From assembly GCA_038046605.1 (NCBI GenBank), contig JBBSVW010000068.1:1-25224 (forward strand): a DNA stretch of 25,224 nucleotides. Direction: 5' to 3'. The stretch's first letter is position 1; each line of letters opens with the position of its first letter. Both the position numbers and the translations under genes were made by a program. The notes under the pieces are model-generated. The model did no database searches, was not told the origin of the DNA, and was given only the letters and a program-made list of their open reading frames with translations. Of this stretch, positions 5,684-19,071 are shown in pieces. The DNA is from Candidatus Micrarchaeota archaeon (GTDB lineage Archaea > Micrarchaeota > Micrarchaeia > Norongarragalinales > SBBD01).

Positions 5684-5836
5684 ATATAGCGGTTAAGTAA
5701 AATAACGGAACATTCAAATAAAACCGCTATATGAGATTACGCAGGCGCTCGAAGCGCCTGCTAATGCTAAGAAGCCTCGAGGCTTCTGACGCAATAAGGC
5801 AGGGAAAAGTTCCAATAATTGCCTTATTCGCTATAT
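5684..5836. repeat. Cluster of four consecutive inverted repeats
   Basis: ATATAGCGGTT 5684-5694 / AACCGCTATAT 5722-5732; GCAGGCGCT 5741-5749 / AGCGCCTGC 5753-5761; perfect palindrome AGAAGCCTCGAGGCTTCT 5770-5787; AATAAGGCA 5793-5801 / TGCCTTATT 5820-5828. Confidence 0.85.
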
Positions 5837-5851
5837 GCTGGGGTGGCGGAA

Positions 5852-5896
5852 ACCTTTTTGGGCTGGCAGGAATATGCCAAACCGAAAAGAACGCAA
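5852..5896 (+). other. tRNA intron 1 (D-loop, about position 15/16, 45 nt)
   Basis: Hairpin CTTTTTGG/CCGAAAAG plus TGGCA/TGCCA. Relaxed bulge-helix-bulge: central GCG/CGC, bulges AAA and AAT. Exact junction ambiguous by a few nt. Confidence 0.75.
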
Positions 5897-5950
5897 TCCG
5901 GTAACGCGCTAGACTCGAGATCTAGTTGGCCGCAAGGTCAGTATGGGTTC

Positions 5951-6013
5951 AAGCCTCTTTTTCTTTTGGAAGAAAAAGACCCTTGGGAGAAAAAGAAACT
6001 CTTGGCTGCTCAA
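5951..6013 (+). other. tRNA intron 2 (T-loop, about position 56/57, 63 nt)
   Basis: Central helix GGGT(5945-5948)/GCTC(6008-6011), bulges TCA and AAA, intron helix AGCC/GGCT. Cutting after the second nt of each bulge restores a 7-nt T-loop exactly. Confidence 0.8.
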
Positions 6014-6216
6014 AAATCCCATCCCCAGCGCTTTTCATTTAGTTGCGTTTTTTTGGCGGCGGAGCCCTCGCCACCTTTTTGGTTAAAAAGGGGGCAAGGC
6101 GTGCAAATCCCATCCCCAGCGCTCCTAATTTTTCGATTATTTTTTTTGGCGGCGGGTCTGTTGCCACCTTTTTGGTTAAAAAGGGAGAACGGTGTTCAAA
6201 TACCATCTCCGGCGCC
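6014..6216 (+). repeat. Tandem ~92-bp repeat carrying copies of the tRNA 3' end
   Basis: AAATCCCATCCCCAGCGCT at 6014 and 6105, AAATACCATCTCCGGCGCC at 6198 (periods 91 and 93). Shared block TTTTTTTGGCGGCGG...GCCACCTTTTTGGTTAAAAAGGG in both units. Confidence 0.9.
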
Positions 6217-6415
6217 CTTTGCAAATAAGCTGGAAAAAATAGGTGGTTATAACGGCAATAAACAAGTCTTGGCACCTGAATAACAAAATACCTAAAAAAC
6301 CCAATATTAAGCAAAAAAATGAATGGCACATTGCACATCAGAAAAACTGCCAATGCTCACCCATGCCAAAGGAATTGGCTGATGAAATAAAAAAAAGAAG
6401 CAAGTGATCAGCGGA

Positions 6416-6439
6416 TTCAAATCCAATCCCAAACGCTTT
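6416..6439 (+). repeat. Further degenerate copy of the spliced tRNA-Ser 3' end
   Basis: TTCAAATCCAATCCCAAACGCTTT versus spliced tRNA plus flank TTCAAATCCCATCCCCAGCGCTTT: 3 mismatches in 24 nt. Confidence 0.7.
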
Positions 6440-6616
6440 ATTTTGTATACTTATTTTATTTTTCGAAAAGACGGCATATATTTCCTACTCTGATCGCGAT
6501 TTCGTGCTTATCGTAGCCAGGTTAATTTTATCGTCAATACGCGAATACCCTTAAATTTATATATTTCATACCGCATTTCAGTATAACGGGAAAGGGGCTT
6601 TAGGGGGGAAGGGGAT

Positions 6617-6910
6617 ATGATTGAAGGTTTAACTCCTATTTACGAATTTGTCATAGTTACCGCAGGCATCTGGCTATTTGTGCACCTAACCTTTGGTTTT
6701 GGAACATTCAAGGAGGCAGCTATGATAACCTTAATTGGGACCGCATTGGTGGCACTGCTTTCTGGCGCCACAATCGAGGTTTTTGGGGCGCTTATGCTTG
6801 CCGGAGGGATGCTTTCGATGTCGATTTACAAGATCAGGTTTGCACAGGCAAGCGCGATGGTTATAACATTCATATTCCTCGGGTTTTTCCTCTTCAGGTT
6901 CAGTGGGTAA
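6617..6910 (+). CDS. Small ~4-TM membrane protein, paralog 1
   Basis: 97-aa hydrophobic ORF after a purine-rich RBS-like run; shares the T-x-x-I/L-W ... F ... GG ... Y/F-K pattern with the next two ORFs. Confidence 0.7.
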   Translation: MIEGLTPIYEFVIVTAGIWLFVHLTFGFGTFKEAAMITLIGTALVALLSGATIEVFGALMLAGGMLSMSIYKIRFAQASAMVITFIFLGFFLFRFSG

Positions 6911-15671: not shown

Positions 15672-17213
15672 TTACAATTTGCGAACTATTCCTTTGGTGG
15701 CATCCACTTCCACCTTATCGCCGTCCTTTAGCCATTTGGTTGCAACTTTTGTCCCAATGACACAGGGGATTTTGAGCTCACGGGAAACAATTGCGGCGTG
15801 GCAGGTGACGCCGCCCTCATCCGTTACTATTGCAGCTGCCTTTTTCATCGCCGGCACCACATTTGGGTTTGTGGCAGGCGAAACCAGGATATCGCCCTTG
15901 TTCATCTTTGCCATATCCTCCGCCTTTCGGATGATCCTGACAATCCCCCTTGCATAGCCGGGGTAGGCAGGGGTTCCTGTAAGCCGCCTGATTTTCTTGT
16001 CCACTTTTTCCTCAACAATGAGTTTTGACCATTTTTCAGCCTCTTTTCCTGCCAGAATGCGGGGACCTTTTTCGTCGGCTACCATCACATAAAGTGAAAT
16101 CCGCGAATTTAACAGATCGGCATCTACTTTGCCGGTTTTGAGTGATTCCCTAATTTCCTTAGGCATCATGTGCCTAACCTGCTTTGGAGAAAGGTTTAGC
16201 CTCCTTGCAATCTCTCGGATCAGTGGATCCGAATTCCTGCTGGCAATAAAGACGGAATCCTTGCGAAGGCCTTTCAGATACGAAAAGGTCCGGGCAACCT
16301 TGCACCAGTAAATTTCATCCTTGGTTAAACGAAGTGATTTAGCCATCAATTGCTGCCCTTCGAGCACCTCCTTTTCGTGCCTAACGAGGGCATTCATTTT
16401 GGATTTCCCATCAATTCCCTGTTTCAATTCACTCCTCAAAAGGTCGGCAAAATAATCAACCTGCAAAATTGTGGGCCCATCATAGTGGAATTGGAGCCAG
16501 TCGTATTTTTCAGCGTGGGCAATGAGCGGTAGGGATATCTTAGGGATATGCACAAGCGAAGGGATGATGCTTCCAATTTCCATCGAAAATATTCCCTTTG
16601 CACGCCTGTCAGATTGGATTTTTGCCAAAATGCCATACAGCTCAAATTCCTCCTGCTGCATGAATGAGCGCTCGGTTGGGGTCCCCAGGATTCCAAATGC
16701 CTCACCTGCGGAAATATCGGAGTTTGAGCGATCCACTGCTTCTTCCAGAAAGGCCAAAATCTTGTTTGTAAGCATAAAATGGCCAAAATCCGAAAGGTTG
16801 ACAATATCGCCCCAAACATTCATTGCCCTCCAATATGAAAGCAGCTCATCGTAACGGTCGGAAAGCGCCACATTTGGCTTATTTGCCAAAGATGCATATT
16901 TTAGTTTAATGGAATTGGTGACCAAATTCAAGCAGGCCTTTTTCTCCTCTGAATATACCTTTACCAAAAACCCCTGCTCCCCAAGGCGCTCAAGCACAAG
17001 TTTGCCCAGTTCATCCCATTCGGATATTTCGCCACGTTGCCTGCAGCAATACCTCCACTGCGCATTCCTTGAATCCATGCAGATCGTATAATTATTCCTG
17101 CCAAGTATCGGCTTAAGTAGGGTACTGCAAGCCGTCATATAGCTTGCCGCATGCGGATAGGGCGATGCGTGATCCTCTGCAAATGCCTTGTAGTGGATTT
17201 TCATACCATTCAC
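15672..17213 (-). CDS. PEP-utilising-enzyme mobile (phospho-His swivel) domain fused to a large N-terminal helical domain
   Basis: C-terminal 'LTGTPAYPGYARG...GDILV...T...AAAIVTDEGGVTCHAAIVSRELKIPCVIG...GDKVEVDATKG'. No ATP-grasp and no PEP-binding TIM barrel. Start GTG 17213 or ATG 17204. Confidence 0.88.
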   Translation of the reverse strand: MNGMKIHYKAFAEDHASPYPHAASYMTACSTLLKPILGRNNYTICMDSRNAQWRYCCRQRGEISEWDELGKLVLERLGEQGFLVKVYSEEKKACLNLVTNSIKLKYASLANKPNVALSDRYDELLSYWRAMNVWGDIVNLSDFGHFMLTNKILAFLEEAVDRSNSDISAGEAFGILGTPTERSFMQQEEFELYGILAKIQSDRRAKGIFSMEIGSIIPSLVHIPKISLPLIAHAEKYDWLQFHYDGPTILQVDYFADLLRSELKQGIDGKSKMNALVRHEKEVLEGQQLMAKSLRLTKDEIYWCKVARTFSYLKGLRKDSVFIASRNSDPLIREIARRLNLSPKQVRHMMPKEIRESLKTGKVDADLLNSRISLYVMVADEKGPRILAGKEAEKWSKLIVEEKVDKKIRRLTGTPAYPGYARGIVRIIRKAEDMAKMNKGDILVSPATNPNVVPAMKKAAAIVTDEGGVTCHAAIVSRELKIPCVIGTKVATKWLKDGDKVEVDATKGIVRKL

Positions 17214-17230
17214 ATAGCAGTGATATTGTA

Positions 17231-17324
17231 ATGTTCAGTGATAATCTGGAATATATAGCCAGATATGAACATCCAGATGAAGATTCCAATTATATCCATG
17301 CAACATATCTGAAAACCTAGATAT
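17231..17324. promoter_or_regulatory. Candidate operator array around a TATA-like box
   Basis: Nested inverted repeats ATGTTCA 17231-17237 / TGAACAT 17266-17272 and ATCTGG 17244-17249 / CCAGAT 17259-17264 flank ATATATA; extra CCAGAT 17273-17278; ATATCT 17305-17310 / AGATAT 17319-17324. Confidence 0.55.
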
Positions 17325-17339
17325 TAACACCTTTAGCCG

Positions 17340-18005
17340 TCATATGCCGGAAAATATGGCAGTTTCAGACAAAAGGGAGGCCATTAGCTTTGATTCTGCC
17401 TTCTTCAAATGCTCCTGGAAGGTAGACCTTGGTACATGGAGCCTTTTGGAAATATCCTCAGCTGAGGATTTCCTCGGGTATTCATAATACCCGAATTTGG
17501 AAGCTGCTCTTATTGCCTCAAGCTGCTTTTTTGTCAGGGATGTGAAAACGGAAGGGAGCAATATGTTTATTGGCATTTGCCTAAGGCTTTGCAAATAAAT
17601 TTCTGTTTTAAGGCCAATGGACTTTACCTTCTTGAAAATCTCAAGAAGGTGCCTTTTCTGAAGGCTTCCAAGCGTCCAGTATTCCCAGCCGCCGTAGGCA
17701 AGTACCGGCCGGAGAAAAAATACCGTGCCCCCAAGGATAAGGTGATGGAACGCGGTATCGACCCGTATTCTGTAAAAAATCTGGTCATTTTCGATCTTTA
17801 TTATCTCCGCCCTCTTCTCCTCCGTAAGGCCTTTTATAAATTCTGCCTTGCGCTTGCCGGAAACAACGCATACCTTGTAGAGGTATTCCTTGCCCTTGTC
17901 CTCGTAGGCATTCAGGTATTGCGTGGTAATCGTGACTCCGGTCCTAAGGCCCACATCCAGCATCCCGGAGCCCTCGTGCCGAAGCTTGAATTTTGCGACC
18001 CACAT
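17340..18005 (-). CDS. Bacterio-opsin-activator-type (HTH_10) transcriptional regulator
   Basis: C-terminal LTKKQLEAIRAASKFGYYEYPRKSSAEDISKRLHVPRSTFQEHLKKAESKL is the HTH_10 signature; N-terminal putative sensor domain. Confidence 0.9.
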   Translation of the reverse strand: MWVAKFKLRHEGSGMLDVGLRTGVTITTQYLNAYEDKGKEYLYKVCVVSGKRKAEFIKGLTEEKRAEIIKIENDQIFYRIRVDTAFHHLILGGTVFFLRPVLAYGGWEYWTLGSLQKRHLLEIFKKVKSIGLKTEIYLQSLRQMPINILLPSVFTSLTKKQLEAIRAASKFGYYEYPRKSSAEDISKRLHVPRSTFQEHLKKAESKLMASLLSETAIFSGI

Positions 18006-18111
18006 AGGTTATCAATTTTTACTATTTTTATTTTCAAAGGGCATTTGGGGCGGCATTTTACCAAGCATTGCAAACAAGTAAGAACCTTCCCCGCCAATAT
18101 TGCTTTTCCCT

Positions 18112-19071
18112 TTACATAGTTGTTATCGGACGGCTCTGCACGATGTAGATTTTGCCCTTTTCGATGGCGAATTCCATGTCCTGGGGGAAATTGTAGTGCT
18201 TTTCAATTCCGATGCAGATTTTTGCCAGCTGGATGATAGTTTTGCCGTCCATTTTCTGCTTGGAGCGCAAATTCGGTGGAACGGGAACAGATACGGTTTG
18301 CACTTTGTTTCCGGTGATTTTCTTTGTTATCATTTTTTCCTGCTCATTAACCGCAACATCCACAAGGGAAAGGTCGCGCTTATCCACGACGTAATTATCC
18401 GGGGAAACAAGGCCGGCAACAACCGATTCGCCTAAGCCATATGCCGCCTCAATTACCATCTGATTTTTGTCCTTTGTTACCGGGTGGACAGTGAATACCA
18501 CGCCGGCAACCTCGGATTGGACCATCTTTTGGACTACGACGGCAACGGAAACATTTTGCAAGTGCATTTTTTTCTCGATGCGGTAAAAAATGGCGCGGGG
18601 GGTAAAGAGTGATGACCAGCACAGTTTGACCGTTCTCATCAAACCCTCCCTTTGTATGTTCATGTATGATTCGAGCTCGCCCGCCCAGCTCGCATTCGCG
18701 CCATCCTCGGCTGTTGCGGAGGAGCGGACTGCTACAAGGGATGCGCCAAGGGAATCGAATTGGGATAGCGCCTCATGATCCACTTCCTTTGGGATTTTTC
18801 CCTTGGAAATCAGAAGTCGGATATCCCTTGATGCCTTGTCAACAGTTGCGGTCTTTTTCACATCCACTTTTTTTAGGATGGAATCGATTTTGCCATTTAG
18901 TTTATTCGCTTTGAGGAATGCATCAAATGAGGGGGTTATGACAACAAACCCGGGAGGCACCGGAATTCCCGAATTGAACATCTCCCCAAGCTGCGCGCCC
19001 TTGCCGCCGGCAATTGAAACTGATTTCCTGCCTAGTTTTTTGAATGGAACCGCATAAATCCCCATTGGCAT
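18112..19071 (-). CDS. Stand-alone PEP/pyruvate-binding ATP-grasp domain (PPDK_N-like)
   Basis: GGKGAQLGEM, VPPGFVIT, VAVRSSATAED, VVVQKMV, GLGESVV, QDMEFAI; ends at IVQSRPITTM*, the usual end of this domain. Confidence 0.92.
   Translation of the reverse strand: MPMGIYAVPFKKLGRKSVSIAGGKGAQLGEMFNSGIPVPPGFVVITPSFDAFLKANKLNGKIDSILKKVDVKKTATVDKASRDIRLLISKGKIPKEVDHEALSQFDSLGASLVAVRSSATAEDGANASWAGELESYMNIQREGLMRTVKLCWSSLFTPRAIFYRIEKKMHLQNVSVAVVVQKMVQSEVAGVVFTVHPVTKDKNQMVIEAAYGLGESVVAGLVSPDNYVVDKRDLSLVDVAVNEQEKMITKKITGNKVQTVSVPVPPNLRSKQKMDGKTIIQLAKICIGIEKHYNFPQDMEFAIEKGKIYIVQSRPITTM

Follow-up and report, generated by a model that had tools for sequence, protein, structure and literature searches.

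Copies of a tRNA-Ser(CGA) 3' exon and a family of intron-related repeat elements in a groundwater Micrarchaeota genome

The tRNA-Ser(CGA) gene and the exon copies behind it

The window analysed here is the whole stretch of 25,224 nucleotides of contig JBBSVW010000068.1, from the genome of a groundwater Candidatus Micrarchaeota archaeon (assembly GCA_038046605.1, referred to as G000; 1.64 Mb in 106 contigs, 46.8% G+C, 90.7% complete). It is a piece of the core chromosome with a ribosomal-protein operon and housekeeping genes, and the nearest relatives of its ribosomal protein L3 are labelled Micrarchaeota or Norongarragalinales. A tRNA-Ser(CGA) gene is located at 5837-6030 on the plus strand, with two inserts, one in the D-loop and one in the T-loop. 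The sequence of its third exon (6014-6030), AAATCCCATCCCCAGCG, recurs downstream at 6105, 6198 and 6419 (copies 2, 3 and 4; Table 1). This array of 3'-exon copies had been described in an initial annotation and was borne out on reading the sequence. Copies 2 and 3 are each directly preceded by a repeat element of ~57 nt, termed the E1 arm, which closes the spacer in front of the copy and is also found as the 3' part of T-loop introns of other tRNA genes in the same genome.

The tRNA-Ser(CGA) gene was detected neither by ARAGORN nor by an Rfam scan at the gathering cut-offs, both of which report nothing in the window; a weak match to RF00005 covers 5884-5967. After in-silico removal of 5852-5896 and of the 63-nt T-loop insert, ARAGORN calls a tRNA-Ser(cga). 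The intron boundaries could be fixed because orthologues without one or the other intron exist among the related genomes. The D-loop intron is missing from G003 and G002 and is carried by G005 and G001. The T-loop intron is found in four of the five orthologues (G000, G005, G003 and G002), the T-arm of G001 being contiguous; the intron of G005 is homologous to that of the window, and G003 and G002 carry longer forms. Folding with RNAfold gives a textbook helix-bulge-helix-bulge-helix for the full, two-armed T-loop intron of the G003 orthologue, in which TTCA pairs with TGAA and the bulges are AAC and AAT. For the 63-nt intron of the window itself no canonical 3-4-3 bulge-helix-bulge fit was obtained, either by hand or with RNAfold, and from these fits the T-loop introns of G000 and G005 seem to need a relaxed splice motif. 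The gene's own 3' exon is intact in all five genomes. A pattern for the Ser anticodon arm (up to 3 mismatches) had no match in G004, G006, G007 and G008, and these genomes are therefore uninformative on the Ser locus. It should be mentioned that ARAGORN finds 22 tRNA genes in G000, and that RF00005 has 24 matches there, 15 of them above the cut-off. Many of the tRNA genes carry inserts of ~80 nt, and most seem interrupted, often repeatedly; tRNA genes of such an insert-rich genome will be undercounted by standard annotation.

Behind the gene, Tandem Repeats Finder reports a 93-nt period over 6014-6215 (2.2 copies, 79% matches, score 241). The spacers before copies 2, 3 and 4 measure 74, 74 and 203 nt and are geneless. 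A fuzzy scan of both strands of the genome with an 18-mer, allowing up to 3 mismatches, gave eight matches outside the locus, of which two are tRNA-Leu 3' ends. This background corresponds to ~0.001 matches expected per 420 nt, and copies 3 and 4 are therefore not due to chance. The changes in these two copies break acceptor and T-stem pairing. Copy 4 is the oldest copy.

An assembly artefact was checked for and is ruled out, because contigs from two studies carry the array. Logan contigs of X1, which may be the source sample, and of X2 span 5971-6700 and 6007-6458, respectively, with 0 differences. In X4, which comes from a separate study, two contigs (5836-6107 and 6108-6449, with 5 and 11 differences) meet at 6107/6108. 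No contig of X3 runs across 6006-6243, a contig gap that carries no weight. The divergence between G000 and the X4 strain is strongly uneven across the Ser locus, the D-loop intron having 3 substitutions and a deletion of 2 nt, and the first module (6031-6107) and the T-loop intron 0 substitutions.

Table 1. Features of the tRNA-Ser(CGA) locus in the window, and tRNA genes of G000 with a duplicated end
Feature	Position	Strand	Description
tRNA-Ser(CGA) exon 1	5837..5851	+	acceptor 5' strand GCTGGGG and start of D-arm; no insert here in the G003 orthologue
D-loop intron, 45 nt	5852..5896	+	boundary uncertain by 1-2 nt (repeated AA)
tRNA-Ser(CGA) exon 2	5897..5950	+	rest of D-arm, CGA anticodon arm, long variable arm, T-stem 5' strand, TTC
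T-loop intron, 63 nt	5951..6013	+	placement uncertain by up to 2 nt; short, non-canonical member of a hairpin-rich intron family
tRNA-Ser(CGA) exon 3	6014..6030	+	T-loop AAAT, T-stem 3' strand, acceptor 3' strand, discriminator G6030
Spacer tail, module 1	6031..6047	+	possibly related to the T-rich tail of E2, which it resembles by eye
E1 arm copy 1	6048..6104	+	T7 run, GC hairpin, T5/A5 hairpin, then GGGGGCAAGGCGTGC; nhmmer E 4.9e-19, itself a seed of the profile
3' exon copy 2	6105..6121	+	exact; identity over 19 nt, to 6123
Spacer tail, module 2	6122..6140	+	in register with 6031-6047 in the 93-nt tandem unit
E1 arm copy 2	6141..6197	+	83% identical to arm copy 1 over 75 nt; ends GGTGTTC
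3' exon copy 3	6198..6214	+	3/17 positions differ
Spacer, no recognisable element	6215..6418	+	no nhmmer E1 match
3' exon copy 4	6419..6435	+	3/17 positions differ; no element recognisable before it
tRNA-Leu(TAG)	C26		3'-end repeat, 20 nt
tRNA-Lys(CTT)	C57		3'-end repeat, 19 nt
tRNA-Ile(GAT)	C9		3'-end repeat, 19 nt
tRNA-Val(GAC)	C89		3'-end repeat, 18 nt
tRNA-Ser(CGA)	window		3'-end repeat, 19 nt
tRNA-Thr(TGT)	C9		5'-end repeat, 24 nt

A third repeat element lies upstream of the gene at 5700-5836 and ends 1 nt before the tRNA-Ser start. A 137-nt copy, 99% identical, is found at C9:5320-5456, and its two end pieces, of 40 and 43 nt, are met again on 13 or more other contigs. The contig depth within it, at 5802-5835, is ~420, against ~7.6 nearby. 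The corresponding place upstream of tRNA-Ser in G005 is occupied by an ordinary AT-rich region, so that this third element may now supply the tRNA-Ser promoter.

Intron-related elements at tRNA genes and at protein-gene ends

The E1 arm opens with a T run, continues with a GC-rich hairpin and a T5/A5 hairpin, and closes with GGGGGCAAGG followed by a few variable bases. A blastn search with the window arm finds it again on C89 (92% over 51 nt) and on C90 (87% over 53 nt), and nhmmer with a four-seed E1 profile gives, besides the seeds, 14 further matches in G000 at E <= 0.02. Seven forward arms are the 3' part of T-loop introns (one each on C90, C23, C75, C62 and C106 and two on C27): 112-246 nt upstream of each, a scripted check located the 5' strand of the matching T-stem, TTC or TCC, and the acceptor's 5' strand, with no exon copy in between. 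They are assigned to introns because these tRNA parts lie upstream with only intron between. Reverse-oriented E1 copies form the 5' arms of T-loop introns on C1, C73, C26 and C75. The two arms in the window belong by sequence to this bulge-helix-bulge intron family, aligning with the arms on C90, C27, C23, C75, C62 and C106. Both are outside the tRNA, downstream of a complete 3' exon, and the tRNA is complete without them. Judging from these alignments, what stands before the window exon copies is an intron-family element's splice-site end. For 18 E1 arms, RNAalifold yields a weak consensus (-4.7) without clear compensatory changes, and an Rfam scan by E-value over six loci returned tRNAs only, with no family for E1 or for E2.

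A direct connection between intron and spacer is seen when the T-loop intron on C23 is compared with the Lys-module spacer on C57: the two align end to end with 102 of 152 columns identical. They share three parts, namely E3 hairpin, TTGATTCGC-type centre and E1 arm. On C23 the element is flanked solely by the T-loop AAAT on both sides, and on C57 by a 19-nt exon repeat. The alignment argues for one composite element with two fates, T-loop intron and downstream spacer. The junction from the end of the E1 arm to AAAT is identical in introns and modules, and the left junction varies. Another repeat, E2, makes up the 5' portion of a C55 T-loop intron.

The initial annotation had proposed to look behind other tRNA genes, and 3'-end repeats were indeed found at Leu, Lys, Ile and Val. 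A genome-wide search for exact direct repeats (at least 13 nt long, 20-450 nt apart) gave 129 pairs, with duplicated tRNA ends among the longest. All five 3' repeats, including that at Ser, begin at the T-loop (C)AAAT or CAAT and end at the discriminator (Val) or 1-2 nt beyond it. The spacer closes with an E1 arm in four of the five (Ser, Lys, Ile and Val) and consists of E2 only at Leu. tRNA 5' ends get duplicated too, because the first 24 nt of tRNA-Thr(TGT) (C9:50830-51065, minus strand) recur 163 nt upstream of the gene. An E2-like hairpin is present in the spacer, which terminates ~30 nt ahead of the intact gene in a TTTTAAAT box; the position of the box suggests that the element at tRNA-Thr may bring a promoter.

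Filled and empty sites occur among close relatives. At the Ser locus, an extra copy is absent from the closest relative, G005 (93% over the gene), where the sequence found after copy 3 in G000 comes directly behind the exon; window 6236-6394 aligns to that sequence at 78%. G002 likewise has none, G003 has one (an arm and a 14-nt repeat, the copy being without the T-loop and T-stem part), and G001 has two. The Ser module is thus common to G000, G001 and G003, and the modules there open with a run of 7-8 T. In each of these genomes the exon copy matches the genome's own acceptor, with CCCCTGCG in G003 (T) and CCCCAGCG in G000 and G001 (A). At the Ile locus, four of the five relatives examined (G003, G004, G005 and G006) have a T run directly behind the exon, like the one behind the second copy in G000; in G003 there is, in addition, a degenerate copy 751 nt downstream. 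In G001 the Ile module comprises an E3 hairpin and an E1 arm with an 18-nt repeat, and it points to an independent event because it is differently built. At the Lys locus, G002 and G004 have a single exon and then the flank that is found after the second copy in G000. No relative seen has a T-loop intron at Ile or Lys, and the modules at these two loci are therefore not leftovers of an older intron of the same gene.

In E2, a hairpin that begins with GACACC is followed by GCCTCTACCCC and a T-rich tail; the left end of the element is fixed, and the tail runs 15-39 nt after CCTCTACCCC. E2 has 38 matches in G000, situated directly after tRNA discriminators (C9, C26 and C106) and at protein-gene ends. 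Anchored flanking repeats (20-40 nt, score at least 10) were detected at 12 of the 38, the 99th percentile for 300 random positions being 9, and exact flanking repeats of at least 17 nt at seven; none of 1000 random positions reaches 12. The 36-nt repeat at C55:21433/21526 corresponds to the final 36 nt of an open reading frame (ORF) before its stop, and all five relatives searched have one copy and no E2. At C55:24847/24934, G005 has the insertion with a diverged repeat, and G001 and G002 are empty. From these flanks, small elements in this genus appear to insert with long duplications of variable length. A further array is present at G000:C73:31350-31900, where the last ~50 nt of an ORF, stop included, occur in at least four diverged copies, and a reverse-oriented E2 comes after each; it is the protein-gene counterpart of the tRNA array.

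Origin of the exon copies

We propose, with a probability of about 60%, that the exon copies are scars of small intron-related insertion elements that duplicated their target, with tandem amplification afterwards. The proposal builds on what was observed directly, namely the anatomy of the array, the family membership of its arms, the recurrence at other tRNAs, the empty sites and the target duplications at non-tRNA sites. The genus carries small non-coding hairpin elements of 60-180 nt, assembled from the E1 arm, E2, E3 and the TTGATTCGC-type centre. An element landing at the end of a tRNA gene would leave 17-20 nt, from the T-loop AAAT to 1-2 nt past the discriminator, on both of its sides, the duplication probably being made at insertion by a staggered break or by target-primed copying. 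The gene would remain whole, with a spare 3' exon behind the element; a 4-nt duplication in place of a 19-nt one would, by the same kind of event, produce a T-loop intron. The right end would be the E1 arm abutting the duplicated AAAT, the same arm that provides the 3' splice-site side of T-loop introns. One Ser module would be old because G001 and G003 have it too. In G000 the 93-nt unit of exon copy and element would then have become two, through unequal recombination of the exon copies with each other or a further insertion, and G005 would have lost its units, if the module is ancestral, or never had them. Distal copies (3/17 changed) would decay because selection acts only on the gene's own exon, and the copies would need no function of their own.

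In the initial annotation the array had been taken as a fossil record of repeated integration or duplication before the intron arrived. Repeated insertion or duplication agrees with the comparison, since the absence of an extra copy in G005 and G002 indicates that the array was gained and lost over time. The placing of these events before the intron is not supported: because the T-loop intron is found in four of the five orthologues, and G003 has the intron and a downstream copy together, the order of intron and copies is unreadable.

Several points weigh against insertion with target duplication or are awkward for it. No flanking repeat was detectable at 26 of the 38 E2 matches, which implies either that duplication is not obligatory or that it decays fast. 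The agreement of the shared Ser module with the acceptor of each genome needs gene conversion, independent insertions or selection. The 9 substitutions of the X4 strain at 6138-6193 (56 nt, second module) are a poor fit, as is the lack of a canonical fold for the T-loop intron of the window. Both window arms are among the seeds of the E1 profile, so that their nhmmer scores are circular, and their independent support is the blastn similarity to C89 and C90. The elements have no terminal inverted repeats, one end being conserved and the other ragged, and they are unlike a classical transposase substrate because of this lack and of their unequal ends. Finally, no candidate enzyme was found in the 90.7%-complete genome, in a search for RVT_1, Phage_integrase and DDE transposases that did not extend to Cas1, IS200/IS605 and other families.

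The search for an enzyme or a carrier gave the following results. PF00589 (Phage_integrase) has no match in G000, and the control search was positive in 14 of 14 reference genomes; even a Xer-type recombinase is undetected in the assembled 90.7% of the genome. None of the 25 ORFs of the window has an integrase domain, as had been noted at the outset, and PF00078 (RVT_1) has no match in G000. Two IS5-like DDE_Tnp_1 genes are present, on C4 and C43. Their best family scores are under the NCBIfam cut-offs, the IS1634 model giving 32 bits or nothing against a cut-off of 100, and their loci contain none of the three E1/E2 motifs searched. Exact matching against viral_contigs, the collection scanned to the exclusion of plasmid, phage and metagenome collections, gave 0 matches for the tRNA-end 20-mer and 17-mer, the E1 22-mer and the E2 22-mer. 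It may be added that the window contains, at 2168-2722 on the plus strand and 3 kb upstream of tRNA-Ser, a gene for a LigT-like 2H phosphoesterase / 2'-5' RNA ligase (PF02834, E 7.6e-21), an RNA-end-healing type of enzyme in a genome rich in tRNA introns. Farther downstream, on the minus strand (15672-19071), a PPDK_N domain (18112-19071) and a PEP-utilizers domain (15672-17213) belong to separate ORFs on either side of an ORF for an HTH_10 regulator (17340-18005), and from this arrangement the region may represent a split or interrupted phosphoenolpyruvate synthase / PPDK gene.

Segmental duplication without any mobile element is an alternative that we consider unlikely. The arm of an ancestral T-loop intron, the 3' exon and the trailer would have undergone tandem duplication through slippage during replication, a template switch at the conserved AAATCC or unequal crossing-over, with the scattered intron-family repeats merely promoting the process. 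The head-to-tail 93-nt repeat of the window agrees with this, as does G003, where a full T-loop intron followed by a downstream arm and a partial exon resembles an intermediate; in addition, every tRNA repeat has its left end at the T-loop AAAT, a conserved place with the highest microhomology between genes. However, the relatives without a module at Ile and Lys are also without a T-loop intron, and hence had no arm to duplicate, and the spacers at these two loci begin with E2 or E3 hairpins foreign to the genes. Moreover, E2 at protein-gene ends, with relatives empty, shows duplicative insertion at arbitrary sequences.

The units of arm and exon could also be functional spare 3' exons, serving as alternative 3' splice partners or as trans-joined 3' pieces, to which we assign a small probability. 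The arm brings the 3' half of a splice motif adjoining the exon copy, and copy 2 with its spacer has 0 differences between G000 and the X4 strain. The presence of the module in G000, G001 and G003, with a copy that matches each genome's own acceptor, is what keeps this explanation alive. By eye, 5953-5962 could pair with 6085-6095, with a spacing that does not fit 3-4-3 bulge-helix-bulge. Against such a role, copies 3 and 4 each carry 3 changes that disrupt pairing, G005 and G002 manage without any copy, and the copy of G003 is truncated while the gene's own exon is intact in all five genomes. Archaeal RNA polymerase terminates at T runs, and read-through into the Ser modules, which open with 7-8 T in three species, is unlikely.

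The integrase reading of the initial annotation is not supported. Under it, a virus or plasmid attP matched the tRNA 3' end, and the integrated elements were later deleted with the att cores left behind. Such an origin has very little probability here, although tRNA 3' ends are classical archaeal att sites at which integration leaves direct repeats of the tRNA end, according to PMC3293823 and PMC3218864. A direct repeat of the 3' part of the tRNA does flank inserted DNA at the Ser locus, but neither an integrase gene nor a virus or plasmid remnant was found beside the repeats, and the proposed attP search ended without an exact match in viral_contigs for the 20-mer, the 17-mer or the two element cores. 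The spacers, of 61-203 nt, are made of genome-wide repeat elements and not of gene remnants; in five different tRNAs the repeats share one T-loop starting position; at the ends of protein genes, duplications of 20-40 nt are made by the same elements; and PF00589 is without a match both in the genome and among the window ORFs.

Reverse transcription of the copies from mature, spliced tRNA can hardly be entertained. The claim that the copies match the spliced tRNA had been drawn from the bases directly before copies 2, 3 and 4 (GTGC, GTTC and ATTC), two of the three reading TTC-AAAT contiguously. When the 26 nt preceding each copy were aligned locally with the 26 nt preceding the intron, all three copies scored 6, a value reached by 1648, 1486 and 922 of 5000 shuffles, respectively (18-33%). 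The terminal bases of the E1 element vary among its copies in G000 (GCGTGC, GCGTTC, GCGTTA and GCATGA), and GTTC before AAAT is also found at an ordinary T-loop intron on C27. The TTC-AAAT contiguity is therefore no evidence of a spliced template, because the upstream similarity is at chance and the TTC lies in the variable end of the element. Furthermore, the identity of copy 2 goes 2 nt beyond the discriminator (GCGCT), into the genomic trailer and not into CCA, which fits DNA-level duplication rather than copying of a mature tRNA, and no RVT_1 gene was found in the 90.7%-complete genome. Copy 4 was considered separately as a relic that extends into the variable arm of an intron-less gene; the resemblance is suggestive by eye, and this candidate was rejected with its score reached by 922 of the 5000 shuffles.

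Comparison with known systems and the arrival of tRNA introns

Intron families shared between tRNA genes, and tRNA-end repeats around integrated elements, are already known from the literature summarized here. Transposition of tRNA introns has been described in Thermoproteales (Fujishima et al. 2010, as cited in PMC10714607 and 10.64898/2026.10.13.758758). As there, related introns occur in many tRNA genes of one genome at non-canonical positions, and the lineage would be expected, by analogy with the Micrarchaeum EndA described in abstracts, to have a splicing endonuclease of broad specificity. In contrast to that system, the element studied here also lies behind tRNA genes, where the duplicated 3' exon flanks it and relatives have empty sites, a DNA footprint for which the cited summaries give no counterpart; and the lineage belongs to DPANN (Micrarchaeota), not to the Crenarchaeota. 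For Caldiarchaeum, integration-driven disruption of tRNA genes with intron gain has been proposed (Sugahara et al. 2012, PMC3293823). In that case, as in G000, a directly repeated tRNA end flanks the insert, the insert brings an intron, and close relatives are heterogeneous. The Caldiarchaeum insert, however, is described as 1.8 kb long with a recombinase gene and a proposed attP x attB origin, whereas the inserts here are 61-203 nt, non-coding and multi-copy, with no integrase found.

Split and tri-split tRNA genes of Nanoarchaeum and Caldivirga (PMC10714607; Chan 2011, PMC3218864) offer a further likeness in the free-standing 3' piece with a leader related to intron sequence. In the present case the full gene is intact upstream, and the pieces lie in cis a few dozen nucleotides off, decay with distance and are missing in close relatives. 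No published account was found of a 60-180-nt non-coding family that is both intron and insert with exon duplications and empty sites, the search having covered literature other than subscription papers and supplements.

The properties of the elements can also be set beside those of known types of mobile DNA. Miniature non-autonomous insertion elements (MITEs) and the IS1634 group, which comprises insertion sequences with long, variable target duplications, are among the closest known. The elements described here are likewise short, non-coding and multi-copy (38 E2 and about 20 E1), vary in presence between relatives and are associated with target duplications. In contrast, they have no terminal inverted repeats, one end being an E1 arm on the right and the other an E2/E3 hairpin or T-rich tail on the left, and no matching transposase and no fixed-length duplication of a known transposase was found. 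With one precise end, E1 being fixed on the right at the T-loop AAAT, one ragged end and duplications varying from 14 to 40 nt, they resemble the products of target-primed copying for these very reasons, as expected of a retroposed copy.

We extend the proposal, tentatively and with more doubt than confidence, to E1, E2 and E3 as one new kind of mobile element and the source of the tRNA introns of this lineage. Insertion would start at a fixed point of the T-loop beside the E1 arm, with a second break at a variable distance. A duplication of 4 nt would leave the element in the T-loop, where the arm supplies a splice site, so that it survives as an intron; the same event with a duplication of ~19 nt would leave the gene whole with a spare exon, as in the window. 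Other outcomes would be lethal and hence not seen. The copying might be target-primed, with excised intron RNA as a possible template, the 3' end of which is the exact end of the arm.

The route by which archaeal tRNA introns arrive is still open according to a 2026 preprint (10.64898/2026.10.13.758758). Within one genus, the same elements are met in three states, as T-loop introns, as inserts behind tRNAs and as inserts at protein-gene ends, and the filled and empty sites among close relatives make the question of intron arrival testable. This also touches the proposal, made by Randau and Söll (cited in Chan 2011, PMC3218864), of introns as a protection of tRNA genes against integration, as in this lineage the inserting thing and the intron look like one object. 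If the extended proposal is true, it would provide a direct, testable route of arrival for archaeal tRNA introns.

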